Source: a virus (lineage: Duplodnaviria > Heunggongvirae > Uroviricota > Caudoviricetes). From it: DNA of 16,041 bases. The notes below the pieces were generated by a model. That model was not told the DNA's origin. It worked only from the letters and a program-made list of their open reading frames with translations, and did no database searches. Both the position numbers and the translations under genes were made by a program. The stretch lies in IMG/VR virus record IMGVR_UViG_3300029877_000022, positions 1 through 16,041 of that record; one strand, 5' to 3'. Position 1 is the stretch's first letter, and every line of letters begins with the position of its first letter. Below are positions 1-16,041 of the stretch, one piece after another.

Positions 1-99
1 CTCTGCGCTGAAATTTCTTTTTTTCATTGGAGCACCTGTGTTGTTCTGAGGTGAGCATATCACCTCTGTTCAGGTGGCCAAATTCAGTGTGCCACTTCA
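1..99 (-). mobile_element. IS3-family insertion sequence end (IS911-like): terminal inverted repeat plus first codons of orfA; element continues beyond the window start
   Basis: Reverse complement of 1..99 reads TGAAGTGGCACACTGAATTTGGCCACCTGAACAGAGGTGATATGCTCACCTCAGAACAACACAGGTGCTCCA followed by ATGAAAAAAAGAAATTTCAGCGCAGAG (MKKRNFSAE). I recognise this from memory as the IS911-type left end and orfA start; not verified by alignment. Element tip at position 99, minus-strand ATG at 26..28. Confidence 0.8.
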
Positions 100-220
100 T
101 CCTGACTTGGTAGGAGCCATTGTCCAATTTGTCTAGGAAGATATAAGTTTCATTATCATGACCCGTATTTCGGTAAAAAATTTGCTTTGAGTTCATTAAA
201 GAAATCCTCTAGAGAAAACT

Positions 221-748
221 ATGGCACTCACCGACAAGCAAGAAATGTTCTGTCGCGAGTACCTCATCGATTTAAACGCCACGCAAGCGGCTATTCGGGC
301 GGGGTACAGCGCAAAAACAGCCAACCGTACCGCATCCGAAAACCTGTCAAAACCTGACATACAATTCAGAATCTCCGAATTGAAAGCACAACGCAATGAC
401 TCTGTTGGAATAAATGCAGAATACGTACTTAATCGCCTTCTTGAAATCGACCAGATGGATGTGCTCGACATTCTCCTGCAAAACGGTGAGTTAAAGCCCA
501 TTAAAGACTGGCCTAAAGTATGGCGCACAACGCTATCAGGAATGGATGTCGTGGAGATGGTATCCGCAGATAGTTCCGCACTTCTGAAGAAAATCAAATG
601 GCCAGATAAGGTCAAAAACCTCGAACTTCTTGGTAAGCATGTTTCCGTTCAGGCATTTAAAGAACAAGCTTCTCATGAGCTAACCGGCAAAGACGGCGGC
701 GCAATCCAGATTGAAACATCACCGATGAGCACTCTATTCGGAAAATGA
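221..748 (+). CDS. Terminase small subunit (Terminase_2-type, N-terminal HTH)
   Basis: 175-aa ORF immediately upstream of and overlapping the large terminase (ATGA overlap at 745..748). N-terminus LTDKQEMFCREYLIDLNATQAAIRAGYSAKTA matches the conserved motif of the phage small terminase family as I recall it. Position is first gene of the packaging/structural operon. Confidence 0.85.
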   Translation: MALTDKQEMFCREYLIDLNATQAAIRAGYSAKTANRTASENLSKPDIQFRISELKAQRNDSVGINAEYVLNRLLEIDQMDVLDILLQNGELKPIKDWPKVWRTTLSGMDVVEMVSADSSALLKKIKWPDKVKNLELLGKHVSVQAFKEQASHELTGKDGGAIQIETSPMSTLFGK

Positions 749-2160
749 CCTCGATTAATCCTATCTTTGAACCGTTCATTGAGGCGCATCGCTACAAAGT
801 CGCCAAAGGCGGTCGAGGTAGCGGTAAGTCATGGGCAATTGCGAGGCTGCTTGTTGAAGCGGCGCGTCGGCAGCCTGTGCGCATCCTCTGTGCTCGTGAA
901 CTGCAAAACAGTATCAGCGATTCGGTAATCCGGTTGCTTGAAGACACCATCGAGCGGGAAGGGTATTCGGCTGAGTTTGAAATTCAGCGTTCAATGATTC
1001 GTCATCTCGGAACGAATGCTGAATTCATGTTCTACGGCATCAAAAACAACCCGACGAAGATTAAATCGCTCGAAGGCATTGATATCTGCTGGGTGGAAGA
1101 AGCGGAAGCGGTAACGAAGGAATCATGGGATATCCTGATCCCAACCATCCGTAAGCCGTTCTCTGAAATATGGGTGAGCTTTAACCCGAAGAACATCCTC
1201 GACGATACCTATCAGCGATTCGTCGTAAATCCTCCCGATGATATTTGCCTGCTGACGGTGAACTACACCGACAACCCGCACTTTCCTGAAGTTCTCCGTC
1301 TGGAGATGGAAGAGTGCAAACGCAGAAATCCGACACTGTATCGTCACATCTGGCTTGGTGAGCCAGTAAGCGCAAGTGATATGGCAATCATCAAACGTGA
1401 ATGGCTTGAAGCCGCAACCGATGCGCACAAGAAACTCGGATGGAAAGCGAAAGGCGCGGTTGTCTCTGCGCATGACCCGTCAGATACAGGGCCAGATGCT
1501 AAAGGTTACGCATCGCGTCACGGTTCGGTGGTTAAGCGCATTGCCGAAGGTCTGCTGATGGACATCAACGAGGGTGCTGACTGGGCTACTTCGCTGGCGA
1601 TTGAAGACGGCGCTGACCATTACCTGTGGGATGGTGATGGTGTTGGTGCCGGGCTACGCAGACAGACAACGGAAGCGTTCTCCGGTAAGAAAATCACCGC
1701 CACGATGTTTAAGGGTAGTGAATCGCCATTCGATGAAGATGCGCCTTATCAGGCCGGAGCATGGGCTGATGAAGTCGTACAGGGCGACAACGTTCGCACT
1801 GTTGGCGATGTGTTCCGCAATAAGCGAGCGCAATTCTATTACGCACTGGCTGACAGGCTGTATCTGACATATCGGGCGGTTGTCCACGGTGAGTATGCAG
1901 ACCCCGACGACATGCTGAGCTTCGACAAAGAAGCGATAGGCGAGAAGATGCTGGAGAAGCTGTTTGCAGAACTGACGCAGATTCAGCGCAAATTCAATAA
2001 TAACGGGAAGCTGGAGCTTATGACTAAGGTCGAAATGAAGCAGAAGCTCGGTATTCCATCTCCTAACCTGGCTGATGCGCTGATGATGTGTATGCATTGC
2101 CCGGAGTCGGCTGCGCAACCCGACTATTCCAGTTACTCAATTCCTTGTGGTGTAGGTTGA
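745..2160 (+). CDS. Terminase large subunit (ATPase/nuclease)
   Basis: 471-aa ORF with Walker A-like KGGRGSGKS near the N-terminus. Size and sequence recalled as very close to the Sf6-type large terminase (about 470 aa). Start overlaps the small terminase stop. Confidence 0.9.
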   Translation: MTSINPIFEPFIEAHRYKVAKGGRGSGKSWAIARLLVEAARRQPVRILCARELQNSISDSVIRLLEDTIEREGYSAEFEIQRSMIRHLGTNAEFMFYGIKNNPTKIKSLEGIDICWVEEAEAVTKESWDILIPTIRKPFSEIWVSFNPKNILDDTYQRFVVNPPDDICLLTVNYTDNPHFPEVLRLEMEECKRRNPTLYRHIWLGEPVSASDMAIIKREWLEAATDAHKKLGWKAKGAVVSAHDPSDTGPDAKGYASRHGSVVKRIAEGLLMDINEGADWATSLAIEDGADHYLWDGDGVGAGLRRQTTEAFSGKKITATMFKGSESPFDEDAPYQAGAWADEVVQGDNVRTVGDVFRNKRAQFYYALADRLYLTYRAVVHGEYADPDDMLSFDKEAIGEKMLEKLFAELTQIQRKFNNNGKLELMTKVEMKQKLGIPSPNLADALMMCMHCPESAAQPDYSSYSIPCGVG

Positions 2161-2161
2161 T

Positions 2162-4360
2162 ATGGCAGAAAAAAAGATGACTGACTGGCATCGCAAGGTG
2201 CTGTGCAACTTTGATAATGCCTGGTCAGCAACGCAGGATATGCGTGAGCAGATTATTGAGGCTCAACGTTTCGTCCGGGTGTCCGGCGCACAGTGGGAAG
2301 GCAGCACAAACGCTGGTTACTCATTTGATGAAGGCAGGTTTGAGCATTACCCGCGCTTTGAACTGAATAAGATTGCCCGTGAATGTGATCGCATCATTGG
2401 CGAGTATCGACAGAATCGCATCAGCGTTAAATTCAGGCCGAAGGACGATAAGGCATCGGAAGCGTTGGCCGAAAAGATGAACGGCAAATTCCGCGCTGAC
2501 TATCAGGAAACATCCGGTGGCGAAGCGTGTGATAACGCATTTGATGATGCTGTAACGGGTGGATTCGGTTGTTTCCGCATGTGTGCCGATTACGAAGATG
2601 AAATGGATCCGAGTAACGAGCAACGCCGTATAAGCCTTCTTCCTGTTTACGACCCAGCGACATGCGTCTTCTTTGATCAGGACAGCAAGCAATATGACCG
2701 CTCTGATGCTATGTGGGCTATGGAAATGTTCTCCATGACGCCCAAAGCGTTCGAGGCTGAATACCCTGATTCCATCGCGGCAAGCCTTTCTCGTGATGAC
2801 ACTGGCACTCAATATGACTGGTCAACGCCCGATGCCATCTATGTTGGACGCTACTACGAAGTTCGCATAGAGAAGGTGAAGCTCACGGCGTGGCGCAACC
2901 CTGTTAGCGGAGAAACGGCAATCTATGATGAAGAGCAAATCAAAGATGTTGTCGACGAGCTAACCGATGGCGCATTCGAACTGATTGGTGAGCGAACGGT
3001 GAAGAAACGCCGCGTTTATTGCGGCCTTCTGTCTGGCGCTGAATGGCTGGAAGAACCGAAGCGTATTCCGGGCGAACATATTCCTCTCATCCCGGTATAT
3101 GGGCGTCGCTCATTTGTTGATAATCAGGAGCGAATCGAAGGCCACGCAGCAAAAGCGATGGATGCACAGCGTCTTGAGAACCTGATGGTTTCCATGATTG
3201 CAGATAACGCTACTCAGGCTGGCGGTGATGGCATTCCTGTAGTTGATGTTGACATGATTCCTGGTCCTCTCGCCAATCATTGGGCGGAGCGCAACAAAAA
3301 GCGCCCGGCGTTCCTGCCGATGGTAAGTCTGAAAAACAAAAACGGAGATATTACTGCGCAGGCTCAGGTCAGCAGTTATACACCTCCAACACAAATGCCT
3401 CCTGCTCTTGCCGGGCTATTACAGTACACCGGAACGGCTATTCAGCAAATTACAGGTGCGTCGCAGCTTGAGAACATGCCGAGCAACGTCGCTACCGATA
3501 CCGTTGATAGCATCTTTAACAGGATGGACACGCAGTCATATATCTACATGGACAACATGGCTAAATCCATGCGTCGCGCTGGCGTTGTGTGGCTTTCTAT
3601 GGCGCGTGAGGTCTATGGCAGCGATACGCCAATGCGCATCGTTAATGAGGACGGCAGCGATGACGTGGCGCTGATGACTGGTGAAGTGGTTGACCGTCAG
3701 ACAGGGCAGGTTATCGCGCTTAACGACCTTTCGCAGGGTAACTATGAAGTGACTGTCGATGTCGGTCAGTCGTTCGCTACTCGCCGTGATGCAACGGTTA
3801 AGTCGTTACTTTCCATGCTGGCACTTATCCCACCAGGAACGCCGAAGCACGACCTTGTATCGTCGATGATTCTCGACAATATGGACGGCGAAGGGATGGA
3901 CGATCTTAAAGAATACAACCGCAATCAGTTGCTTCTGTCTGGAGTTATCAAGCCGAGAACACCAGAAGAACAGCAGATGGTTGAGCAGGCGAAACAACAA
4001 CAGGCCAGTCAGCCGGATCCGGCTATGGTTGCAGCGCAAGGTCAGCTTCTTGCTGGTCAGGCTGAATTGCAGAAAGCGCAGAACGAACAGGCAGCCATTC
4101 AGGTTAAAGCATTCCAGGCACAGACTGATGCTCAGGTTGCTGCGGCAAACGTTGTGAAAATCCTCGCATCTGCCGATAGCCAGCAGAAATCTGATATCCG
4201 CGAGGCTCTGAAACTGCTCGGACAGTTCCAGCAACAGCAAGGAGACAATGCCCGTGCTGATGCAGAGCTTGTCCTGAAAAGTCAGGCGCAGGGACATGCA
4301 CAACGCATGGACATCAGCAGCATCCTGCAAAAATCAACTCAGCAACAACCACAGCAATAA
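2162..4360 (+). CDS. Portal protein (P22 gp1-like)
   Basis: 732-aa ORF directly after the large terminase (stop 2158..2160, ATG 2162). Size close to P22 portal (725 aa). Shares recalled motifs with P22 gp1 (GEHIPLIPVYG, KPRTPEEQQ, DPAMVAAQGQLLAGQAELQKAQN) and has a Q-rich helical C-terminal tail. Confidence 0.9.
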   Translation: MAEKKMTDWHRKVLCNFDNAWSATQDMREQIIEAQRFVRVSGAQWEGSTNAGYSFDEGRFEHYPRFELNKIARECDRIIGEYRQNRISVKFRPKDDKASEALAEKMNGKFRADYQETSGGEACDNAFDDAVTGGFGCFRMCADYEDEMDPSNEQRRISLLPVYDPATCVFFDQDSKQYDRSDAMWAMEMFSMTPKAFEAEYPDSIAASLSRDDTGTQYDWSTPDAIYVGRYYEVRIEKVKLTAWRNPVSGETAIYDEEQIKDVVDELTDGAFELIGERTVKKRRVYCGLLSGAEWLEEPKRIPGEHIPLIPVYGRRSFVDNQERIEGHAAKAMDAQRLENLMVSMIADNATQAGGDGIPVVDVDMIPGPLANHWAERNKKRPAFLPMVSLKNKNGDITAQAQVSSYTPPTQMPPALAGLLQYTGTAIQQITGASQLENMPSNVATDTVDSIFNRMDTQSYIYMDNMAKSMRRAGVVWLSMAREVYGSDTPMRIVNEDGSDDVALMTGEVVDRQTGQVIALNDLSQGNYEVTVDVGQSFATRRDATVKSLLSMLALIPPGTPKHDLVSSMILDNMDGEGMDDLKEYNRNQLLLSGVIKPRTPEEQQMVEQAKQQQASQPDPAMVAAQGQLLAGQAELQKAQNEQAAIQVKAFQAQTDAQVAAANVVKILASADSQQKSDIREALKLLGQFQQQQGDNARADAELVLKSQAQGHAQRMDISSILQKSTQQQPQQ

Positions 4361-4450
4361 TTAACCCATAACGTGCAATGGCTGTCTTTATGAGGCCTGG
4401 CACCCTATTGCCTTCCGATGGGCTGAACATCGAGTAAACAGGGGTAACAA

Positions 4451-5344
4451 ATGGACCAGATGGCAGAAAACACACCAGAAGTTGAAATCGAAACCGACGC
4501 GTCAGAGCAGATTCCTGATGATGTCGAACTGGCTGAAGAAGTCGAAACAGAAGATGGCAGTGAGTCCTCCGGCAATGGTGCAGAGGAAGCTAGTGAAACT
4601 GATGACGACGAATCAGAACAGGAATTCTACTTTGGTGACGAAAAGCTGGATTCGCCAACCAGCGAAGATGGCGCAGAGCATGGACTGGTAAAACACCTGC
4701 GCAAGACGATTAAAGAGAAAGACCGCGAGCTGAAAGAGCTGATGCGTCAGTCTCAGAAACCCGTCGAGCAGCAGCCGGTAATCACTCTACCACCGCGGAT
4801 GCCAAAACTGGACGATGAGGACATCGGTTTCGATGAAGAAATCTACCAGCAACGCATGGCTAAGTGGGCAGAGGATAACGGCAAGTACCAGCAACAGGAG
4901 ATGGCTCGCAAGCAGAAGGAGCAGGAGCTTCAGGCTGCCTATCAAGAGCGATTATCCAAATATCAGCAACGTGTTAAGGCTCTCAAAGTTCCTGGCTATC
5001 AGGAAGCTGAGCAGGCCGTACTCGAGGAAATCCCCATCGAGACACAAAACGCGATCCTGTTTGAGTCAGAGAAGCCGGAAATCGTTGTTCTGGCGCTCGG
5101 TCGCAACGCTGAACTGCGCAAGCAACTGGCAGAAGCTACAAACCCCGTAGCAATTGGTCGTCTGCTGGAACGTATCGAATCGAAGGCCAGAATCATGCCA
5201 AAAGCAAAAACCACGGCAGCCACAACCCCGACAGTTAAGGGGAGCAACGGCGCAGTAATCAATAACCTCGACAAACTGAAAGCCAAGGCGCTGGAAACTG
5301 GTGACTGGACGCCGTATTTCGCCGCTAAAAAGGCAAAAAAATAA
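4451..5344 (+). CDS. Scaffolding protein (P22 gp8-like)
   Basis: 297-aa ORF between portal and coat. Very acidic N-terminus (D/E-rich), charged coiled-coil-like middle, basic C-terminus. Size near P22 gp8 (303 aa). RBS-like AGGGG 8 nt upstream of the ATG. Confidence 0.8.
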   Translation: MDQMAENTPEVEIETDASEQIPDDVELAEEVETEDGSESSGNGAEEASETDDDESEQEFYFGDEKLDSPTSEDGAEHGLVKHLRKTIKEKDRELKELMRQSQKPVEQQPVITLPPRMPKLDDEDIGFDEEIYQQRMAKWAEDNGKYQQQEMARKQKEQELQAAYQERLSKYQQRVKALKVPGYQEAEQAVLEEIPIETQNAILFESEKPEIVVLALGRNAELRKQLAEATNPVAIGRLLERIESKARIMPKAKTTAATTPTVKGSNGAVINNLDKLKAKALETGDWTPYFAAKKAKK

Positions 5345-5362
5345 CCTATCGGAGCATTAAGC

Positions 5363-6616
5363 ATGGCTAACCAATTAGCAAAAGACCTTGAAATCATGTT
5401 CGAAAACTACGTTGAAGGCTTTGAGGCCGCCTGCGTAGTTTCCCGTAACGCTAAAAAATTCCGTCCCGGTGATACAGCAATGCAGCGAGCAGGTGATGTT
5501 CTGTATCGTCCGCAGCATTACCACATGAACATTGAGGAAGGCCTCGACCTCAGCGGCAAAACGCCAACAGCACTGGTTCAGCGCCTTGTTCCTTCTGTGT
5601 TCAAGGAGCCGAAAAACATTCTGTACACTCTGGATGCGCGTGAAATGCGTGACCCGGAACATAAAACTGAAGCTGGTCGCGCCGCAGGTATGCGCCTTGC
5701 TGCACAGATTGACTCGGACCTGATTTCCATGGTCACGCAGCGTGCTACTAACGTGATCACAATGGCTGACTCAACCACTGGTTCACAGGGCCGTGATTTG
5801 TGGAACTGTGCGGCAGGTATTGATGCCACCATGACGGCGATTGGTGTACCACAGGGTATCAACCGCCGCTCTTTCTGGAACCCCTTCAACTACAAAGACC
5901 TTGCTGGCGAGCTTGGTCACCGTGCCTATGCTCAGGGCGCAACCCTGACAGCATACGAAAAAGCGCAGATCCCTCCGGTTGCTTCCTTTGATAGCTACAA
6001 GACCGATATTTCTGGTCGATTACCGAAAGGAAGCACTGAATCCTTGACAGTATCAGGCCAACCTGAACACAAGGTTGAAGCGAAAGATTCAAATGGTATG
6101 CCAGTTGATAACCGACAGGGGACTATTACGGTATCTGCATCTGGCTTGCAGGTTGGTGATGCGTTCACCATTGCCGGTGTGAATTCCGTACACCAGATCA
6201 CAAAAGATACCACCGGTCAACCGCAGGTATTCCGTGTTCTGGCTGTTAGCGGAAATACCGTAACAATTTCTCCAAAGATTCTCCCTGTTGAAAATACTGA
6301 TGTTGCGAGTCGTCCATATGCAAACGTCGATGCCAAACCGGCAGAATCAGCAGCAATCACCATTCTCAACAAGAACGCAGCACCTGCTAACCTGTTCTGG
6401 GCTGATGGTTCTGTTGAGCTTATGTACGGCAAACTGGCGTTCCCGACTGGTCAGGGTCCACAGGTAATGACAGCAACCACCGAGCAGGGCGCTACGCTGA
6501 TCATGTCTTACGCCTTCGACCACATCAAAGGCGTAACCACTGCTCGTTTCACCACTCTGTACGGTTGCTCTGTACTTGTTCCTGAATATACGGGCATCGT
6601 TATTGCCGGGCAGTAA
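5363..6616 (+). CDS. Major coat (capsid) protein (P22 gp5-like)
   Basis: 417-aa ORF after the scaffold gene with GGAG RBS. Size near P22 coat (430 aa). C-terminal region NLFWADGSVELMYGK resembles P22 coat NVFWADDAIRIVSQ from memory. Followed by a terminator hairpin. Confidence 0.85.
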   Translation: MANQLAKDLEIMFENYVEGFEAACVVSRNAKKFRPGDTAMQRAGDVLYRPQHYHMNIEEGLDLSGKTPTALVQRLVPSVFKEPKNILYTLDAREMRDPEHKTEAGRAAGMRLAAQIDSDLISMVTQRATNVITMADSTTGSQGRDLWNCAAGIDATMTAIGVPQGINRRSFWNPFNYKDLAGELGHRAYAQGATLTAYEKAQIPPVASFDSYKTDISGRLPKGSTESLTVSGQPEHKVEAKDSNGMPVDNRQGTITVSASGLQVGDAFTIAGVNSVHQITKDTTGQPQVFRVLAVSGNTVTISPKILPVENTDVASRPYANVDAKPAESAAITILNKNAAPANLFWADGSVELMYGKLAFPTGQGPQVMTATTEQGATLIMSYAFDHIKGVTTARFTTLYGCSVLVPEYTGIVIAGQ

Positions 6617-6620
6617 TTTT

Positions 6621-6646
6621 GGTGGGGCTTCGGCCCCATTTTTATT
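6621..6646 (+). terminator. Rho-independent terminator/attenuator after the coat gene
   Basis: GGGGC-TTCG-GCCCC stem-loop (6624..6637) with a TTCG tetraloop, followed by ATTTTTATT. Lies 5 nt after the coat stop codon. Confidence 0.65.
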
Positions 6647-6657
6647 GGGAGAAGACA

Positions 6658-6846
6658 ATGGCACGAACAATGCTCTATAAGCCTGGCAACATGATCACCT
6701 GTGGTCAGTTTGCTGTCGATTACATCATTGTTGATGACGAAGAAGTTAAATCTCACCTGAAAAAAGGTTGGGTAAAAACTCCTGAAGAAACCGCAACGAA
6801 GCAAAAAGTGGCTAAGGCGGAAGAAGATGGCGAAAACGAAGGGTGA
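6658..6846 (+). CDS. Small hypothetical protein (62 aa) between coat and gp4-like genes
   Basis: ORF-track frame 6619..6846. I place the start at ATG 6658 because GGGAGAAG sits 4 to 11 nt upstream and the 6619 start would lie inside the terminator hairpin. Acidic C-terminus. The 3' end overlaps the gp4-like start by 20 nt. Function unknown. Confidence 0.55.
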   Translation: MARTMLYKPGNMITCGQFAVDYIIVDDEEVKSHLKKGWVKTPEETATKQKVAKAEEDGENEG

Positions 6847-7288
6847 TCTCGTTCTAAAGGCTTTACGAAAAGCCGGGCTGTATTCCAGTGCCACGTTGAC
6901 AGATGCTGACCCTCAGGCAATTGAAGATGCCATTAATGACCTCGAAGACATGATGGCAGCATGGCAGGCTAAAGGTATCGAGCTTGGGTATCAGTTTGCT
7001 GATACAGAAAACGGCATCATGCCGTTACCGGACGATGATTCAGGTATCCCTGCATGGGCAAATGATGGCGTCGCTTTGAAACTCGCTGTGCAAGTGTGCA
7101 TGGATAACGTCATTCAGCCGTCAGACGCTCTCCTTACCGCTGCTGACAGTGCATATCAGACAATCTGTATCGCTTTAACCAAAATACCACCACTTGAGCG
7201 GCGAAATGACATGCCTCGCGGTAGTGGTAACAAAAGCGCGTTTACGTGGAATCGGTTTTACATCGAGAAAGATGATCCGAGTACGTGA
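6827..7288 (+). CDS. Head completion / portal-binding tail adaptor (P22 gp4-like)
   Basis: 153-aa ORF. N-terminus MAKTKGDLVLKALRKAGLYSSATLTDADPQAIEDAINDLEDMMAAW closely parallels recalled P22 gp4 ([44 protein letters not shown]). Gene order matches P22. Confidence 0.85.
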   Translation: MAKTKGDLVLKALRKAGLYSSATLTDADPQAIEDAINDLEDMMAAWQAKGIELGYQFADTENGIMPLPDDDSGIPAWANDGVALKLAVQVCMDNVIQPSDALLTAADSAYQTICIALTKIPPLERRNDMPRGSGNKSAFTWNRFYIEKDDPST

Positions 7289-7297
7289 GGTGAATAA

Positions 7298-8716
7298 ATG
7301 CCGATTCAGCAACTTCCGCTTATGAAAGGTGTCGGCAAAGACTTTCGAAACGCCGACTATATCGACTATCTGCCAGTGAATATGTTGGCTACACCCAAAG
7401 AAATCCTGAACAGCAGCGGATATCTTCGCTCATTCCCGGGCATTGCCAAACGTTCTGATGTGAACGGCGTATCGCGAGGCGTCGAGTACAACATGGCGCA
7501 GAATGCTGTTTATCGCGTGTGTGGTGGCAAACTGTATAAGGGCGAAAGTGAGGTCGGTGATGTTGCCGGAAGTGGTCGCGTATCAATGGCGCATGGTCGA
7601 ACATCACAGGCGGTAGGCGTTAACGGGCAACTGGTCGAATACCGCTATGATGGCACGGTTAAAACCGTCTCAAACTGGCCTGCAGACAGCGGGTTTACGC
7701 AGTATGAGTTAGGTTCGGTTCGCGACATTACGCGTTTACGTGGGCGTTATGCGTGGTCAAAAGACGGCACTGATTCATGGTTTATCACTGACCTTGAAGA
7801 CGAATCGCATCCTGACCGTTACAGCGCACAATATCGTGCCGAGTCTCAGCCGGACGGCATCATCGGTATCGGGACATGGCGAGACTTCATCGTCTGCTTT
7901 GGTTCATCGACTATTGAATATTTCTCCCTTACTGGCGCAACCACCGTTGGTGCTGCTTTGTATGTCGCACAGCCATCACTGATGGTGCAAAAAGGCATCG
8001 CCGGGACTTACTGCAAAACGCCGTTTGCTGATTCTTATGCATTCATCAGCAATCCGGCAACAGGTGCGCCGTCTGTATACATCATCGGCTCCGGTCAGGT
8101 GTTACCAATCGCCAGCGCGAGCATTGAGAAAATCCTCCGCTCCTACACTGCTGATGAACTGGCTGATGGCGTGATGGAATCGTTGCGGTTTGATGCTCAT
8201 GAGTTGCTGATTATTCACCTGCCGCGCCATGTACTCGTGTACGACGCATCTTCAAGCGCTAATGGTCCGCAATGGTGTGTGCTGAAAACAGGCCTGTATG
8301 ACGATGTGTACCGCGCTATCGACTTCATTTACGAAGGCAATCAGATAACGTGCGGCGATAAGCTGGAATCGGTTACCGGTAAATTGCAGTTCGATATCAG
8401 CAGCCAGTACGACAAGCAACAGGAACACCTGCTGTTTACTCCATTGTTCAAAGCGGATAACGCAAGAGTGTTTGACCTTGAAGTTGAATCGTCAACTGGT
8501 GTTGCGCAGTACGCTGACCGCCTGTTCCTCTCTGCTACCACTGACGGCATCAATTACGGTCGTGAGCAGATGATTGAGCAGAATGAACCGTTTGTTTACG
8601 ACAAACGCGTTTTGTGGAAGCGAGTCGGGCGCATCAGGAAAAATGTCGGCTTCAAATTGCGCGTTATCACGAAGTCACCTGTCACTCTGTCTGGTTGCCA
8701 GATAAGGATTGAGTAA
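7298..8716 (+). CDS. Tail hub / tail accessory factor (P22 gp10-like)
   Basis: 472-aa ORF, the same length as P22 gp10, in the syntenic position between the gp4-like and tail needle genes. Confidence 0.8.
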
Positions 8717-9417
8717 TGGCTGATTCGAATCTCAACACCCCTGTTATTGTGCAGGCGACGCGGCTCGATACATCAATCCTTCCACGCAATATATTCAGCC
8801 AGTCTTACCTGTTGTATGTCATTAATCAGGGGGCTGATGTCGGCGCAATTGCCGGGAAGGCAAATCAGGCTGGTCAGGGCGCTTACGATGCCCAGGTAAA
8901 AAACGATGAACAGGATGTCGAACTGGCTGATCACGACGCAAGAATCACCGCAAACACAAAAGCGATAAATCTCCTTGAGGTCAGGTTAACAACCGCCGAA
9001 GGGAAGATAGTCATACTACGTAGCGATGTTGATTACTTGCTGGATGAGGTTATCGATATTCAGGCGCATCTGGTCACTGTTGACCAAATGCTGGATGACG
9101 TAGAAAACGATGTCTCTGGCATTAAGAGTGATTACGTATCGAAAACCGTAACCGAATCGCAGTCTCTTGCGTCACCGCTGGATGTAAAAACATCATATTC
9201 AGTTGATGGAATTCAGGTTGTTGGAGCAAGAAATACCGGATGGACTGCAGCCACAGGTACACCTCTTTTGGGCTCATTCAACGCTAACCAGTCATACACA
9301 GTCGGCACTACGTACACACAATCCGAAGTCGCAGCCCTCGCTACAGGGTTGCAGCAGGCGCGGCAGCGTATTCTGGCGCTTGAAACGGCACTTAGATTAC
9401 ATGGGCTGATTGACTGA
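8716..9417 (+). CDS. Tail needle / cell-puncturing plug protein (P22 gp26-like)
   Basis: 233-aa ORF, the same length as P22 gp26. N-terminus [73 protein letters not shown] and C-terminus [25 protein letters not shown]...HGLID are near-identical to recalled gp26; the central coiled coil diverges. TAATG start/stop overlap with the gp10-like gene. Confidence 0.9.
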
Positions 9418-9872
9418 TGATTACATTCAAACCAACGCGAAACATCGACCTGATAGAAGCCGTAGGAAATCACCCTGACATTATCGCCGGGAGCAACAAC
9501 GGTGATGGATACGACTACAAACCTGATTACCGTTACTTTGAGGTGAACGTGCACGGGCAGTTCGGCGGAATTGTTTACTATCAGGAGATTCAGCCGCTAA
9601 CCTTTGATTGCCACGCCATGTACCTGCCAGAGATTCGCGGCTTCAGCAAGGAAATCGGGCTGGCGTTCTGGCGATACATTCTGACTAACACCACCGTTCA
9701 GTGCGTCACATCGTTCGCTGCGCGCAAATTCCGCCACGGGCAGATGTACTGCGCAATGATTGGCCTTAAGCGTGTAGGGACCATCAAGAAATACTTCAAA
9801 GGCGTGGATGACGTGACGTTTTACAGCGCCACACGCGAAGAACTAATCGACTTCCTGAATCACAGGAGATAG
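9417..9872 (+). CDS. gp14-like virion assembly/ejection-associated protein
   Basis: 151-aa ORF in the position of P22 gene 14 (between needle and ejection protein genes). Start ATG overlaps the needle gene stop (TGATGA). Assignment is by synteny and size only. Confidence 0.6.
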   Translation: MITFKPTRNIDLIEAVGNHPDIIAGSNNGDGYDYKPDYRYFEVNVHGQFGGIVYYQEIQPLTFDCHAMYLPEIRGFSKEIGLAFWRYILTNTTVQCVTSFAARKFRHGQMYCAMIGLKRVGTIKKYFKGVDDVTFYSATREELIDFLNHRR

Positions 9873-9874
9873 CC

Positions 9875-10567
9875 ATGTTATATGCATTTAAGCTGGGCAG
9901 AAAACTGCGCGGCGAGGAACCTTATTACCCTGAAAAAGGCGGGAAAGGTGGCAGTTCTGATAAAAGCGCAAAGTATGCAGCAGAAGCTCAGAAGTATGCC
10001 GCAGACCTGCAAAATCAGCAGTGGCAGACGATCATGAAAAACCTTGCTCCGTTCACGCCTCTTGCGGAGCAGTATGTTAACCAGCTTCAGAACATTTCCA
10101 GTTTAGAAGGTCAGGGGCAGGCACTTAATCAGTATTACAACTCTCAGCAGTATAAAGACCTTGCAGGTCAGGCTCGTTACCAGAGTCTTGCTGCTGCGGA
10201 GGCGACTGGCGGACTTGGTTCGACAGCTACAAGCAATCAACTGGCCACGATTGCCCCGACTCTCGGTCAGTCGTGGTTGTCGAACCAGATGAGCAACTAC
10301 AACAATCTGGCAAACATTGGCCTTGGTGCGCTGCAAGGTCAGGCGAACGCCGGGCAGACATACGCCAACAACATGAGCAGCATTGCGCAGCAAAGCGCAG
10401 CACTTGCCGCTGCTAACGCCAATAAACCATCAGGCCTTCAGACAGCAATTAGCGGTGGCACGTCTGGTGCGATTGCCGGTGCAGGTCTTGCCAGCCTTTT
10501 GGGAACATCAACGCCTTGGGGCGCTGGCATTGGTGCTGGTATCGGATTGCTTGGCTCGTTGTTTTAA
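9875..10567 (+). CDS. Ejection (internal virion) protein, P22 gp7-like
   Basis: 230-aa ORF (P22 gp7 is about 229 aa) with GGAG RBS. Q/N/A-rich low-complexity body and a Gly-rich hydrophobic C-terminus (GAIAGAGLASLLG...GAGIGAGIGLLGSLF) consistent with a membrane-inserting ejection protein. Syntenic position. Confidence 0.75.
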   Translation: MLYAFKLGRKLRGEEPYYPEKGGKGGSSDKSAKYAAEAQKYAADLQNQQWQTIMKNLAPFTPLAEQYVNQLQNISSLEGQGQALNQYYNSQQYKDLAGQARYQSLAAAEATGGLGSTATSNQLATIAPTLGQSWLSNQMSNYNNLANIGLGALQGQANAGQTYANNMSSIAQQSAALAAANANKPSGLQTAISGGTSGAIAGAGLASLLGTSTPWGAGIGAGIGLLGSLF

Positions 10568-10576
10568 GGGGTAATA

Positions 10577-11872
10577 ATGGCTACTTGGCAAGGATCAAAT
10601 GGCGGATTGTTGGCTGGTATCGGCGGCGTCAACTCAAACGCTCCGAGCGTAAATGACATCGGCAATACGCTTCAGCTTATCAGGCAGAACAATGATATTG
10701 AGCGTTCAGGCGCTAACAATGTTGGGCTGACTGCTTTGCAAGGCCTTTCAGGTATTGCAGGAGTGTTTCAGCAGGAAAAGCAGGCTCAGCGGCAGAAAGA
10801 ATTTCAGCAGGCGTACGCTAATGCTTATACGTCTGGTGATCGCGGTGCTTTGCGTCAGTTGGCTACTCAATATCCAGACCAGATTGAATCCGTTCGTAAA
10901 GGCATGGGATTCATTGATGAAGACCAGCGCAATTCCATCGGTACCTTAGCGGCTGGCGCACGCCTTGCGTCATCGTCTCCAGAAGCAATGCAATCATGGC
11001 TGCAAAACAACGCCAAGGAACTGACTCGCGTCGGTGTTGACCCTAATAACGTTGCTCAGATGTATCAGCAGAATCCTTCAGGATTTGGTGAGTTTGTTGA
11101 TCACCTTGGAATGGCTGCTCTTGGTCCGATTGATTACTTCAATGTTCAGGACAAGATGGCTGGTCGTGAGATTGACCGAGGCAGGCTGGCAGAGACAATC
11201 CGCAGCAATCAGGCAGGAGAAGCACTAACAGCTCGAGGTCAGGACATCCAGATACGTGGACAGAACATCAGCGCACAGAATGCTGCTCTTTCCCGAGAAA
11301 TACAAAGAGCAGAATTACAAGAAAAGGCTCTGGACAGACAGATAGCCAGAGAAAGCAATCAGTTAAAGCTTGAAGAGCTAAAACAGAAACAGGCAGATGT
11401 TCGGCAAAAGGCTGACATAGCCCGCGCTGACAGGCAGGCCGCCGCTCAGGGTGCAGTTGATACGTTCAGCACCGCGCTTGATTCTCTCAACGAGATAGAG
11501 CAAAGCCCCGGCCTTTCAAAAGCAGTAGGAATTCGCTCAGCGTTTCCGACAGTTCCTGGCTCTGATGCGGCTAACTTTGAAGCAAGGCTCGACACCTTTA
11601 AAGCTCAAACATTCCTTCCTATGGTGCAGTCCCTGAAGGGTATGGGCGCTCTTTCAGATGCAGAGGGTAAAAAATTATCCGATGCGGTTGGTGCCCTAAG
11701 CCCCAAAATGAGTGAAAAGGCTTTTCGTGACTCTATCGGAAAGATTAGAAATCAGCTTGAAAGCAAGTTGAGCACTGTTAAAAAACAGTTTGATTATCAG
11801 GAGCCGGTGCAGAATATGCCAGGGCAACAATCTACTACTGGCAGTAACTTTTCTTCGCTATGGGGTGATTAA
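10577..11872 (+). CDS. Ejection (internal virion) protein, P22 gp20-like
   Basis: 431-aa ORF in the syntenic position, with AAGGGG RBS. Contains a long charged coiled-coil segment (IRGQNISAQNAALSREIQRAELQEKALDRQIARESNQLKLEELKQKQADVRQKADIARADRQ). Confidence 0.7.
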   Translation: MATWQGSNGGLLAGIGGVNSNAPSVNDIGNTLQLIRQNNDIERSGANNVGLTALQGLSGIAGVFQQEKQAQRQKEFQQAYANAYTSGDRGALRQLATQYPDQIESVRKGMGFIDEDQRNSIGTLAAGARLASSSPEAMQSWLQNNAKELTRVGVDPNNVAQMYQQNPSGFGEFVDHLGMAALGPIDYFNVQDKMAGREIDRGRLAETIRSNQAGEALTARGQDIQIRGQNISAQNAALSREIQRAELQEKALDRQIARESNQLKLEELKQKQADVRQKADIARADRQAAAQGAVDTFSTALDSLNEIEQSPGLSKAVGIRSAFPTVPGSDAANFEARLDTFKAQTFLPMVQSLKGMGALSDAEGKKLSDAVGALSPKMSEKAFRDSIGKIRNQLESKLSTVKKQFDYQEPVQNMPGQQSTTGSNFSSLWGD

Positions 11873-13869
11873 TGGCTAAAGCATGGAAAGATGTTATCGC
11901 CTCTCCACAGTATCAGGCGTTAGCACCAGAACAAAAAGCGCAGGCTCAGGAGCAATACTTCAATGAAGTCGTTGCCCCGCAAGCCGGAGAAAATGCAGAG
12001 CAGGCTAAGCAAGCTTTCTATGCTGCCTATCCATTGCCATCTGTGCAGCCAGTGGAGACACAACAACCAGTATCACAGCAACAACCACAGCAAAGTGGAT
12101 TTATGTCGGATCTTGGTGAAGCCGTGAAAGAAACTGGTCGCGGACTGGTGCAGGCTGGCGTGAACGTGGCAAACATACCTGCATCAGTTGCCGATGCTGT
12201 AACAAGCGCGGCGGCTTGGGCTGGCGGTAAACTCGGAATTGGCGATGGGACATATCACCCAGCGCCACGAGTAACAACGCAGGGATTAGAGCAGGACTTT
12301 GGCCTTCAGCAAGGCGCGCTGACTCCACAAACTACAGAGGGCAGGGTATTTGCTGAGGCATTGCCTTACCTCACTCCTGCTGGCATTGAGAGAGCGGCAA
12401 CACAGGCACCAACACTCGCTGGTAGAATCGCTCAGGGTGCAACTCGCCTTCTCGCTGAAAACGCAGTCGGGTCACTTGCTGCAAATAGTGCGAAAGATGA
12501 TGCGGAAGCACTCGCTACCGATTTAGGCATTGGCGTTCTGGCTGGCGGCGCTATTAACGCTGCCGGACGTGGATTAGGCGCTGCTTATCGTGGCGTTCGT
12601 GGTGCTATTGCACCAGAAGCGCAGCAAGCTATCAGATTTGCAGAGCGTGAAGGAGTGCCTCTGCACACCACAGACCTGTTACAGCCTAGTTCCCGCGTCG
12701 GAAAAATGGCGCAAACGACAGCAGAAAATATCCCCCTGGCTGGCACAAGCGGAATGAGAGCAACGCAACAGGAAGCGAGAAGCCAGTTGGTTCAGAGATT
12801 TGCTGATAAATTCGGTGAGTATGATCCAGCGGTTGTTATTGACAGCCTTAAAGCGAAAACATCAGGAATTCGTCGCGCTGCAGGAAATCGACTGGAGCAG
12901 GTTCAGAATGCTATGGCGGGAATAAACATTCAGCCTGCAAGAGCAATTCAGCAGATTGATACAGAAATATCTAACCTGCAGAAGCTTGGTAAGGTTGCTG
13001 ATAACGAGACTATTTCAAAACTTCAGTCCTATCGTGATGAGCTTGTTCGCAATGCTGGTCCTGATGGTCCGGTAAATCTGGATTTGAAGCAATTAAGCGA
13101 TCTGCGCAGCCAGTTCAGAATGGACGTGAAGGGTGAGCGACCAGTGTTACCAAACCGTTCCGATGCTGCCATTCAGCGCGTTTACAAGGCAATGACCGAC
13201 GATATCAATGGTGCCATTGGTCAGAATCTTGGCAACGATACTCTCCGTAAATATCAGCAGGCCAATGCCGTCTACGCTGACGAAGCCGCGAAACTAAAGA
13301 ATACCAGGCTGAAGAATGTTCTCATGAAAGGCGATCTGACGCCGGAAGTTGTCAACAACATGCTATTCAGCAAGAACAAATCGGAAATTAAGACGCTGTA
13401 TAACTCAGTTGGTCGTGTTGGCAGGGCGCAAATGCGCAATGGCATCATTGGAAAGGCGATGGAGAAATCTGGCGGATCCCCTGACCAGTTCCTTCGGCAG
13501 CTTAACATCCTGCAAAACCAGACTGGCATCACATTTAAGGGGCAGGACGCTGCTTATCTGAAAGGATTAAAAAACTACCTGCAATCTACGCAGCAGGCTG
13601 CAAAAGCGGCAGTAACAACACCCACAGGGCAGCAAACTATCCCGTTCATTATTGGGTATGGGACGGCAATGAACCCTGCGACAACTGGCGCAGCAGTAAG
13701 CTACGGACTTCTTACTCGCGCCTATGAGAGCGAGCCATTCAGAAATGCAATGCTCAGAATGGCAAACACCCCACGCGGATCAACAGCGTTTGAGAAAGCC
13801 ATGCAGCAGGCACAAAAGGCAATTAACGCTATGACGCAGGGGGCTAAGTCTGATGCGTTGTCAGAATAG
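11872..13869 (+). CDS. Ejection (internal virion) protein, P22 gp16-like
   Basis: 665-aa ORF, last gene of the ejection protein trio. TAATG start/stop overlap with the previous gene. Assignment by synteny and size (P22 gp16 about 609 aa). Q/P-rich N-terminal segment. Confidence 0.7.
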   Translation: MAKAWKDVIASPQYQALAPEQKAQAQEQYFNEVVAPQAGENAEQAKQAFYAAYPLPSVQPVETQQPVSQQQPQQSGFMSDLGEAVKETGRGLVQAGVNVANIPASVADAVTSAAAWAGGKLGIGDGTYHPAPRVTTQGLEQDFGLQQGALTPQTTEGRVFAEALPYLTPAGIERAATQAPTLAGRIAQGATRLLAENAVGSLAANSAKDDAEALATDLGIGVLAGGAINAAGRGLGAAYRGVRGAIAPEAQQAIRFAEREGVPLHTTDLLQPSSRVGKMAQTTAENIPLAGTSGMRATQQEARSQLVQRFADKFGEYDPAVVIDSLKAKTSGIRRAAGNRLEQVQNAMAGINIQPARAIQQIDTEISNLQKLGKVADNETISKLQSYRDELVRNAGPDGPVNLDLKQLSDLRSQFRMDVKGERPVLPNRSDAAIQRVYKAMTDDINGAIGQNLGNDTLRKYQQANAVYADEAAKLKNTRLKNVLMKGDLTPEVVNNMLFSKNKSEIKTLYNSVGRVGRAQMRNGIIGKAMEKSGGSPDQFLRQLNILQNQTGITFKGQDAAYLKGLKNYLQSTQQAAKAAVTTPTGQQTIPFIIGYGTAMNPATTGAAVSYGLLTRAYESEPFRNAMLRMANTPRGSTAFEKAMQQAQKAINAMTQGAKSDALSE

Positions 13870-13962
13870 CTTTTCAAACACCAGGAACGTGCAAAAACCA
13901 AATATGTAGAACGCGAGGTTTATCGTATCCCTCTGCATAGGCGATGATACATTTGCTGATTG

Positions 13963-14448
13963 TTATCTGATGTTACTGCTACTGTTGCATGTGACTGTAT
14001 TTCCAAACCCTGAATTGCAGTTTGTGTAAGTTTCAACTCGTGTTGGATAGGGTTGAGTTATAACAGGCTGTCTCGCTTTTTGCTCGATCGCTTGCATTGT
14101 GTTTACAGCCTGATAATTCAATAAAGCCTGCTGGAATGCTTGGCTTTGCGCTATTTGTTGGGCTTGTTCTTGGCTTTGTAGTTGAACATAAAGATTCTGA
14201 AGCTCAAGTCTTGCCTGCGCGTCACTTATCTTGCCATCATCGACACCTTGCCCGAGCATCTTCGCAGCAAGGACATATAACTTAGGTGTTGGTGCTGATG
14301 CCATGCGTGAGTCGTTCTTCACGCTAGCATCAAGGCAATTAGCCATATCGCTAAGCTTTGGATAGCGTTGTTCGCAATTTGCCTGATAGTCGCTAACCTT
14401 TGCGCACCCTGCCAGCAGAAGCGGGATAATTAACAGTGATTTTTTCAT
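13963..14448 (-). CDS. Predicted secreted lipoprotein, function unknown (accessory/moron gene)
   Basis: Minus-strand ORF. I place the start at the ATG at 14446..14448 (MKKSLLIIPLLLAGC) because AAGGAG lies 9 nt upstream and this gives a canonical lipoprotein signal peptide with lipobox LAGC. Mature part has cysteines near both ends and a Q-rich helical middle. No recognisable homologue from memory. Confidence 0.7.
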   Translation of the reverse strand: MKKSLLIIPLLLAGCAKVSDYQANCEQRYPKLSDMANCLDASVKNDSRMASAPTPKLYVLAAKMLGQGVDDGKISDAQARLELQNLYVQLQSQEQAQQIAQSQAFQQALLNYQAVNTMQAIEQKARQPVITQPYPTRVETYTNCNSGFGNTVTCNSSSNIR

Positions 14449-14582
14449 ATGATTAACTCTCCTTATCTTTGCCATCATGGCACTGTTGGGTGTAAATGAG
14501 TTATTAACTCAATCGACAATATCTTCACGAAAATACTTTTTATTATTAAGATCTTTCTGATTCTAACAAAACGGAAAGTAAT

Positions 14583-15002
14583 ATGAAGAGGATTATCGGC
14601 GTCGTTGCTGGCGCTATATTGTTATCTGGGTGCGCAACTATTGTTGGTGATGAAACGCAGCTTGTGCAAGTGAACAGCAATCCTTCTGGCGCGAGCTTTA
14701 AGGTAAAAGATGAATCTGGTGTGATTGTTGCGCAAGGTAAGACTCCACAAGGTGTAACACTCGCCAAGTCAGATGGTAGCTATTTTGGCAAAAAGAGCTA
14801 CCAGATCACTATGGAGAAGGATGGGTACGAACCAGTTACCCTGCCAATCAAAGCCAATGCTAATGGTTGGTATATTGGTGGGAACCTTGTGTTTGGTGGG
14901 TTAATTGGTTGGCTTGCTGTAGATCCATTTAATGGTGGGATGTATACCTTGAAGCCTAAAGAGGCAAATGCATCCCTTATACCGTCCACAAAGCAAGACT
15001 AA
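14583..15002 (+). CDS. Predicted lipoprotein with PEGA-like domain, function unknown (accessory/moron gene)
   Basis: 139-aa ORF with lipoprotein signal MKRIIGVVAGAILLSGC (lipobox LSGC). Middle region NPSGASFKVKD...GKTPQGVTL...YQITMEKDGYEP resembles the PEGA domain pattern. Gly/Trp-rich C-terminal segment GWYIGGNLVFGGLIGWLAVDPFNGGMYTL. Followed by a terminator. Confidence 0.7.
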   Translation: MKRIIGVVAGAILLSGCATIVGDETQLVQVNSNPSGASFKVKDESGVIVAQGKTPQGVTLAKSDGSYFGKKSYQITMEKDGYEPVTLPIKANANGWYIGGNLVFGGLIGWLAVDPFNGGMYTLKPKEANASLIPSTKQD

Positions 15003-15009
15003 TAAATGG

Positions 15010-15033
15010 AACCCACCATCAGGTGGGTTTTTT
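15010..15033 (+). terminator. Rho-independent terminator after the lipoprotein gene, overlapping the mnt stop codon
   Basis: AACCCACC-ATCA-GGTGGGTT hairpin (15010..15029) followed by a T-run to 15033. The poor U-tract on the opposite strand suggests it acts mainly on + strand transcripts. Confidence 0.7.
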
Positions 15034-15270
15034 GTACAAATCCTTCAGCGTATCAAACACCATCTTCTTAACAAGTTCAGACTGCTCATCAGCGATGCGT
15101 TCCGCATCGTCTCGATAGCCTGAAATTTTGGATGGCCTTGATACAGCATCAGTCACTATCTGAACTAATTCTGAATTAAGAGAGCGGCCATTGGATTTGG
15201 CTCGCTGTTTTAGTTTTTCCTTTAATTCGTAAGGTAGCCGCAGATTAAATTGCGGGTCATCTCTTCCCAT
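15019..15270 (-). CDS. mnt: Mnt repressor (ribbon-helix-helix, Arc/MetJ family)
   Basis: 83-aa minus-strand ORF MGRDDPQFNLRLPYELKEKLKQRAKSNGRSLNSELVQIVTDAVSRPSKISGYRDDAERIADEQSELVKKMVFDTLKDLYKKPT. Near-identical in length and sequence to P22 Mnt as I recall it, including the N-terminal beta-strand DNA-reading motif and C-terminal tetramerisation helix. Confidence 0.9.
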   Translation of the reverse strand: MGRDDPQFNLRLPYELKEKLKQRAKSNGRSLNSELVQIVTDAVSRPSKISGYRDDAERIADEQSELVKKMVFDTLKDLYKKPT

Positions 15271-15332
15271 TCTTGATGCCTCGCTCTTGTGAGTGGATCG
15301 GCATCTTATTATCTGCTGGTTGCATCCTCAAT

Positions 15333-15349
15333 AAGACCACGGTGGTCGT
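15333..15349. promoter_or_regulatory. Mnt operator-like 17-bp palindrome
   Basis: AAGACCACGGTGGTCGT has a symmetric core GACCAC-G-GTGGTC (15335..15347). It resembles the P22 Mnt operator as I recall it (AGGTCCACGGTGGACCT). Located in the 135-bp gap between the mnt start and the tailspike start. Confidence 0.6.
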
Positions 15350-15405
15350 ATTTTTTGATTAATAATGAATCACTGCGGCCATTCCTTGTATCTGGAGCAA
15401 ATTAA

Positions 15406-15945
15406 ATGACAGACATTACAGCCAATGTTGTAGTGAGTATGCCTTCGCAACTCTTCACTATGGCTCGTTCTTTTAAAGCCGTAGCCAATGGCAAAATTTA
15501 TATCGGTAAAATTGACACTGACCCGGTAAATCCTGAAAACCAGATTCAGGTCTATGTTGAGAACGAAGATGGTTCTCACGTTCCTGTTGCACAGCCAATC
15601 GTCATCAATGCCGCAGGGTATCCAGTATATAACGGACAGATTGCCAAATTCGTTACCGTGCAAGGCCATTCTATGGCTGTTTATGATGCGTATGGTGCAC
15701 AGCAGTTCTATTTTCCTAATGTGCTGAAGTATGACCCGGATCAGTTTAAACAAAAAGTATTATCAAATGATATGCTAAATATGTCTCCTCTTTATTTTGG
15801 AGCTAAGGGGGATGGGATTAGCGATGATACTGAAGCATTTGTCGCGTTGGAAATGGATATAAAAAATAGGGTTATTGATTTAAGTGGAAGAGCATTTTTT
15901 GTTACTAAAAGTTTTATTGGAAATAGCTATATAAATGGTTCTTAG
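15406..15945 (+). pseudogene. Tailspike gene truncated by IS2 insertion; retains the P22-type head-binding domain and the start of a pectate-lyase-like receptor-binding domain
   Basis: N-terminus [59 protein letters not shown]...[15 protein letters not shown]...[10 protein letters not shown] is the conserved tailspike head-binding domain. It is followed by an AT-rich segment encoding [16 protein letters not shown]. The frame ends at a TAG that is the first 3 nt of the IS2 end (15943), so the ORF is 179 codons instead of the 600 to 700 expected. Confidence 0.85.
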
Positions 15946-16041
15946 ACTGGCCCCCTGAATCTCCAGACAACCAGTATCACTTAAATAAGTGATAGTCTTA
16001 ATACTAGTTTTTAGACTAGTCATTGGAGAACAGATGATTGA
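15943..16041 (+). mobile_element. IS2 left end (IRL, orfA promoter region and orfA start codon); element continues beyond the window end
   Basis: TAGACTGGCCCCCTGAATCTCCAGACAACCAGTATCACTTAAATAAGTGATAGTCTTAATACTAGTTTTTAGACTAGTCATTGGAGAACAGATGATTGA matches the IS2 left end as I recall it, ending with ATGATTGA (MID..., the start of the first IS2 ORF). One possible mismatch to my recalled consensus (CCAGTATC here, CCAATATC recalled). Confidence 0.85.

Follow-up and report, generated by a model that had tools for sequence, protein, structure and literature searches.

A P22-like prophage remnant of Escherichia coli carries a copy of the insertion sequence IS2 in its tailspike gene, and the insertion is best explained, with a probability of roughly 88%, as neutral decay that came after or among other IS-mediated lesions. 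The window, that is, the whole stretch of 16,041 nt that was analyzed, represents bases 29..16069 of ENA contig ERZ918213 k127_33847, a 16,097-bp MEGAHIT assembly from a human gut metagenome. In the proposed course of events, a full IS2 (1,331 bp) would have transposed between codons 179 and 180 of the tailspike gene, in the same orientation as the gene, with duplication of the 5-bp target GTTCT. The TAG contributed by IS2 would end translation and leave a fragment of 179 residues, consisting of the head-binding domain and 66 residues behind it, while the other 702 codons, which encode the receptor-binding body and a self-cleaving C-terminal chaperone domain, would lie beyond IS2. The repressor, replication, Q, and holin genes had most probably already been lost from the ancestral arrangement, and an IS911-adjacent deletion to the left of the virion module would have removed the remaining lysis genes. 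The break in the tailspike would then be neutral decay, not the event that created an adsorption defect in a working phage.

The left end of IS2 is read directly at positions 15943..16041 (plus strand), co-oriented with the tailspike gene, and comprises the IRL, the leader, and the start codon of orfA; its first three bases are a stop codon. All 99 nucleotides agree with the left end of an IS2-family element of 1,331 bp annotated in E. coli VTB97022v (L002:4457-4555; 99/99, E=6e-48), in which the annotated CDS start (L002:4548) corresponds to the orfA ATG at 16034. The same segment is 98% identical to a second IS2 copy, in E. coli 702/18, from which the window differs at one IRL base (G versus A). 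Three independent insertions with unrelated flanks all open with TAGACTGG, and because this boundary is common to them, IS2 starts at 15943 and supplies the TAG (15943..15945). Past the window, the contig continues for 28 nt more, reading MIDVLGPEKRRR, and the remaining transposase gene lies beyond the contig end. Exact scans of the genome contigs and viral contigs collections for the left tailspike-IS2 junction gave 0 matches.

IS2 is a 1.3-kb element of the IS3 family with 41/42-bp inverted repeats that inserts via a minicircle intermediate, and direct repeats are a signature of its insertion (PMC3299598). In the uninterrupted target, AATGGTTCT is followed by TTTATT, which in codons reads ...AAT GGT TCT and then TTT ATT CGT in E. 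coli GMF054. The five bases in front of the junction, 15938..15942 (plus strand), are GTTCT, which is therefore the expected target duplication and its left copy. The preliminary description had read GGTTC at these positions, which is off by one base, as GGTTC occupies 15937..15941. Its central claim, an interruption by IS2 with an IS-derived TAG at 15943, is correct, and the 100% alignment of the right end of the window to annotated IS2 goes far past a chance match.

The tailspike ORF (15406..15945, plus strand) consists of an ATG start, 179 sense codons, and the TAG stop, and it matches the opening 537 nt of the tailspike gene of GMF054 (881 aa) at 100% identity. Codons 1-113 (15406..15744, plus strand) encode the head-binding domain, which matches the Pfam Head_binding profile PF09008 end to end (profile positions 1-113/113, E=5.7e-68), and the PDB entries for the Sf6 and P22 tailspikes align through their N-terminal domains with residues 1-120. 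Codons 114-179 (plus strand) encode the linker and the start of the receptor-binding body, that is, 66 further residues of the next domain kept in the 179-residue product. The ORF reading and the match over the whole profile bear out the earlier description of an ORF that ends after codon 179 with its head-binding domain retained. The gene stands downstream of gp7, gp20, gp16, and the immI region, in the same order as in GMF054 and at other loci. The receptor-binding body itself is absent from the ORF of the window, which stops after codon 179, and is found only in uninterrupted alleles of 881 aa; the window carries a tailspike gene fragment and no functional P22-like (gp9 family) member. In P22-like tailspikes, attachment to the tail hub is by the N-terminal domain, and receptor recognition is the task of the body behind it (PMC9728967). 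At best, the 179-residue product could fill the docking sites; it cannot provide host recognition. The G+C content is 31% in 15751..15942 (codons 116-179) versus 43% in the head-binding domain and 50% in the virion module; the drop marks where recombination has joined the conserved anchor to the exchangeable body, and this is also the stretch struck by IS2.

Five contigs in ENA, Logan, and JGI/IMG encode the 179-aa product. A variant with one substitution, cut at the same codon, is present in an NCBI E. coli draft genome (WP_250220204.1, on a 16,006-nt contig) and suggests a lineage of isolates with the same architecture; this record is labeled partial, and it may be that its contig merely breaks off where the repeat begins, with no IS2 sequence on it. 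Public assemblies also contain other truncated alleles of this tailspike, namely P0017, with a -1 frameshift in a T run (175 aa), and P0020, with a -1 frameshift in an A run (158 aa). These two alleles are either independent inactivations or homopolymer sequencing errors.

The uninterrupted allele is observed in E. coli GMF054, where the tailspike of 881 aa is identical to the window up to 15943 and then continues with TTT ATT CGT. Over window positions 10079..15943 (5,865 nt), GMF054 is 100% identical with no mismatch. The assembly GCA_049823245.1 is 100% identical over 8098..15943 and also encodes an 881-aa tailspike, and the same intact gene is present in several E. coli draft genomes. The intact protein consists of the head-binding domain, a body of roughly 580 residues, and a Peptidase_S74 chaperone at residues 713-774; the chaperone domain matches PDB entries 3gw6, 4uw8, and 3gud by sequence and fold. 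That the gene part for the receptor-binding body and the C-terminal region now lies past the IS, as had been proposed, is supported by the existence of P0023, a predicted junction-spanning protein described below. The C-terminal part, which had been called the trimerization region, is indeed displaced and is more precisely a Peptidase_S74 intramolecular chaperone than a simple trimerization region.

The body of the intact tailspike has no Pfam match, and a comparison with 50,697 deposited phage records gives a single weak, partial hit (E=5e-6; 27% identity over 30% of the query). An AlphaFold2 model of the 881-aa protein, built on an alignment of nine sequences, is poor (pLDDT 46.8), the C-terminal chaperone match being its one trustworthy part, and a beta-propeller-like center can be suggested from it tentatively. 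The label endo-alpha-sialidase on GCX96392.1 probably reflects the chaperone domain only. The same body (L001:4644-6200) occurs on other N-terminal anchors (PF18668, PF12218, and PF21311) in Leclercia and metagenome proteins, and as it is found on several anchors, it is a module shared between phage types. The receptor-binding body lost here belongs to a family without a characterized phage representative and may interest those who catalog depolymerases. Many draft E. coli contigs with the intact tailspike (L048-L057) stop at one and the same base, their position 1 (equivalent to L001:7922), just past the start of the neighboring GT2 glycosyltransferase gene. A repeat beyond the GT2 gene was considered as the cause of these contig breaks and rejected, as the DNA there is not multi-copy in complete genomes.

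The right junction of IS2 is approached through a protein predicted to span it. The far side of the insertion would consist of IS2-IRR, GTTCT, and TTTATTCGT, with the right end of IS2 joined to GTTCTTTTATTCGT on the side of the displaced tailspike. A construct was assembled from the IS2 right end (IRR), GTTCT, and the GMF054 tailspike from codon 180 (Phe180) onward. In this construct, a GTG located 37 nt from the end of IS2 opens an ORF of 716 aa that runs in frame into the body (MITDVWKYRGKSSS-FIRDG...). The 716-aa ORF is the exact sequence of P0023, an entry in the public protein collection that derives from ENA (two contigs, the longest of 3,502 nt). The opening 12 codons of P0023 are encoded only by the IS2 right end (MITDVWKYRGKS), and the Ser codon that follows combines the last base of IS2 with bases of the duplication. 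The residues ...GKSSSF... contain S-S-F, which corresponds to A+GT TCT TTT and requires the arrangement IS2-A+GTTCT+TTT. The first 14 residues of P0023 can come only from IS2-IRR followed by A and GT TCT, and therefore the right end, the GTTCT repeat, and the in-frame continuation exist in some assembly. For the element in the window, the right copy of GTTCT and the in-frame continuation are indicated indirectly by P0023, which may come from another sample. The in-frame continuation and 5-bp repeat that had been predicted past IS2 are in this indirect manner supported, with GTTCT as the repeat in place of GGTTC.

An 18-mer made of the IS2 end and GTTCTT was found at 40 loci in metagenome contigs, all of them chance matches except an unrelated IS2 insertion (L044). 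A product of 675 aa (P0022) was dropped as evidence for the insertion, since it is also present in L052, a locus without room for IS2. The contigs reached through the neighboring GT2 protein, all from NCBI and Logan, have intact or frameshifted tailspikes.

Both ends of the contig are placed at insertion sequences. The contig stops exactly 127 nt, the value of k, after the first base of IS2, and at its left end, window positions 1..99 together with the 28 nt outside the window equal the terminal 127 nt of an IS911-family element. As both ends lie 127 nt, the MEGAHIT k, inside multi-copy IS elements, they are assembly breaks; contigs that end exactly k bases inside IS elements are to be read in this way rather than as biological ends. 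Since the short-read assembly broke within the repeat, the remainder of the tailspike would be found on a different contig. The source is a metagenome, and cells with the uninterrupted allele may coexist with those carrying the interrupted one.

Between the two insertion sequences, the 15.8-kb phage segment of the window contains a complete virion module of the P22 type (221..13869, plus strand; PHROGs and Pfam). All 12 virion genes from terS to gp16 are present, 10 of them at full length by profile. The terminase genes terS (221..748) and terL (745..2160) are complete ORFs with partial profile matches. Full-length profile matches are obtained for the portal (2162..4360), scaffold (4451..5344), coat (5363..6616), gp4 (6827..7288), gp10 (7298..8716), needle gp26 (8716..9417), gp14 (9417..9872), and the ejection proteins gp7 (9875..10567) and gp20 (10577..11872). 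The gene of the third ejection protein, gp16 (11872..13869), which is also on the plus strand like all of the above, has no match in the Pfam profile search and is assigned from a precomputed PF26808 label and the GMF054 annotation. The immI region (15019..15405) is reduced to a mnt-like gene of the Arc family of repressors (15019..15270, minus strand, 83 aa; Pfam Arc E=1e-21, Repressor_Mnt E=1e-18) and is without arc and ant, which the related prophages L002, L003, and L051 possess. Just upstream of the tailspike gene, a consensus scan alone indicates a terminator-like hairpin, GACCACGGTGGTC followed by a T run (15335..15358, plus strand).

On the left, the window opens with the IRL end of an IS911-family (IS3 family) element at 1..99 (minus strand), whose transposase gene points left, away from the window, and whose terminal bases TGAAGTGG occupy 99..92 of the minus strand. 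Of 5,426 genomes, 4,021 contain a match to this segment, on plasmids as well as chromosomes, annotated as IS3-like element IS911 family transposase; the identity is 100% with the IS911-family copy of GMF054 and 98% with copies from thousands of genomes. Positions 100..220 are phage DNA upstream of terS and hold the 5' part of a small minus-strand gene cut by IS911, the deletion junction being IRL joined to TCCTGACTTGG. Intact relatives have a minus-strand ORF of 77-79 aa at this place, and L067 and L058 read through it uninterrupted (...CCCG directly followed by TCCTGAC). An exact scan of the genome contigs collection for the IS911 junction of the window gave 0 matches.

Near-identical prophages line up as a nested set of IS911-adjacent deletions. 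L062, with 1 mismatch in 10,649 nt against the window, is an intact prophage that has repressor, cro, replication, nin, Q, holin, lysozyme, and Rz genes. L058, which has 0 mismatches to the window over 10.6 kb, runs from torS through int, xis, and further genes to ea22, then IS911, and then a truncated lysozyme gene; everything from cI to holin is absent, and its IS911 end is also 100% identical to that of the window (L058:7112-8360, 9880). L067 (1 mismatch) has the same lysozyme junction adjoining the IS911 IRL (L067:410-1928). In the window, the same IRL is fused 1,519 bp further in, 120 nt before terS, and the lysozyme fragment, Rz/Rz1, and small ORFs are gone. In GMF054 (L005), which is 100% identical over 10079..15943, the same IRL is fused inside gp7 (22331/22332), and on its other side IS911 borders on a truncated integrase adjacent to torS. 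As the truncated integrase is next to torS, this is the attachment region of the prophage family, which in GMF054 is integrated between torS and torT and in L058 next to torS. The GMF054 remnant, from the truncated gp7 through the tailspike to GT2, is positioned between torT and torS (NZ_CM183924.1 2927000-2939000). At the same lysozyme junction (adjoining ATATACCGG), IS911 stands in opposite orientations in the near-identical prophages L058 (L058:8360) and L067 (L067:409), which implies an inversion in place, for which recombination between IS911 copies in inverted orientation is the presumed cause.

Whether the tailspike break cost a working phage its infectivity depends on the state of the remaining prophage. 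In P22, heads that lack the tailspike are stable, do not infect, and can be made complete in vitro, and an otherwise functional, inducible prophage would accordingly yield DNA-filled heads that are non-infectious only for the missing receptor-binding body. The full set of virion genes from terS to gp16, with terminase subunits as complete ORFs, would fit such a prophage, as would the intact sibling L062, which is a single nucleotide apart in 10.6 kb, as expected of very recent decay. This reading is nevertheless unlikely given what adjoins IS911: the element lies 120 nt upstream of terS, the Rz/Rz1 genes and lysozyme fragment of the closest relatives are deleted, L058 with an identical IS911 end and 10.6 kb in common lacks cI to holin, and in GMF054 the IS with the same IS911 end abuts a truncated integrase. 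The simplest reading of the sequence comparison is that the element was non-inducible and lysis-defective before IS2 landed, or became so independently, and the prophage probably cannot make virions at all; we infer this absence of virion production, as well as the content to the left of IS911 in the strain of the window, where an intact early region could conceivably exist elsewhere, separated only by IS911. The preliminary description considered the prophage adsorption-defective, and its logic holds for a working phage; that the element still makes particles is not well supported in view of the IS911 deletions. Since the window most likely contains a non-inducible remnant, the loss of adsorption is moot. 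A further alternative, that the tailspike-IS2 junction is an assembly chimera or a minority state and the gene is intact in the dominant population, draws on the short-read metagenome assembly as the source and on the 100%-identical intact alleles that are common in E. coli isolates. This alternative is extremely improbable, as a run of 127 nt past the junction in a de Bruijn contig needs junction k-mers and no strong competing branch, the same 179-aa product appears in five contigs of three origins, a one-residue variant is cut at the same codon in an NCBI isolate, and the reciprocal junction product P0023 exists with the expected 5-bp duplication.

The remaining alternative takes the insertion as selected or functional. 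Complete E. coli genomes supply three further independent IS2 insertions, each in another P22-like tailspike gene (L002:4457-5787, L047:3977-5307, and L003:4916-6246) and each co-oriented with the gene. In VTB97022v, IS2 (1,331 bp) follows codon 143 and is flanked by the direct repeat ATGTC; in 2014-01-7375, IS2 (1,331 bp) follows codon 154 with the direct repeat CGAAA; and in 702/18, IS2 follows codon 294 with a direct repeat of 14 bp (ATCCATCTTCCGAA), which is unusual for IS2. With the window, this makes four independent co-oriented insertions in different P22-like tailspikes, after codons 143, 154, 179, and 294, as if IS2 hit recurrently behind the head-binding domain. IS2 might prefer the AT-rich stretch there, codons 116-179 having far less G+C than the virion module (31% versus 50%), and DNA curvature has been linked to IS2 target choice (PMC3299598). 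In three of the four cases, an ORF from the IS2 right end runs in frame into the body, and a GTG or ATG at the right end might thereby express a virion-free receptor-binding protein or depolymerase; lysogens might be selected to disarm the tailspike or to express a polysaccharide-binding or -degrading protein free of the virion. Such selection is very unlikely, as four of four insertions in one orientation correspond to p=0.125, two of three reading frames give such fusions by chance, and frameshift alleles of the same gene family (P0017 and P0020) are as expected under neutral decay; a promoter scan at the IS2 right end also found no promoter-like site. No specific report of an IS insertion in a P22-like tailspike emerged from a literature search.

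The tailspike insertion, as one of several lesions, is best accounted for by neutral decay of a cryptic prophage, and the kind of event, an IS insertion in a cryptic prophage gene, is already known; beyond annotation, the case matters little. For annotation, it illustrates that a prophage may be dead even though its virion genes earn it a complete score. The aligned prophages form a series of very recent, stepwise, IS-driven decay in gut E. coli, with the order of an intact prophage, an IS911 deletion of the early genes, nested IS911-adjacent deletions, and IS2 in the tailspike.

Comparison with known systems places the parts of this locus in familiar families. With regard to IS2 of E. coli, nothing is different in kind: the left end alone is visible, and orfA starts at the expected distance. 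The tailspikes of P22 (gp9) and Sf6 (gene 14 protein) share the head-binding domain (PDB 7sg7, 2xc1, and 1lkt; E=1e-45 to 1e-65) and the position of the gene after the ejection-protein genes and the immI region. Their endorhamnosidase beta-helix, however, has no sequence similarity to the body of the 881-aa allele, and they lack the Peptidase_S74 chaperone with which that allele ends. Peptidase_S74 is shared instead with proteins that have a C-terminal chaperone, such as the endosialidases of K1F and CUS-3, the L-shaped tail fiber pb1 of T5, and gp12 of phi29, although by its sequence the central domain of the 881-aa allele is no endosialidase. Cryptic prophages of E. coli and Shigella that are riddled with IS elements combine IS insertions in structural genes with nested, IS-adjacent deletions that remove regulatory and lysis genes, and the same pattern is seen here; the difference is that decay in the present family is very recent, such that successive states can be lined up.
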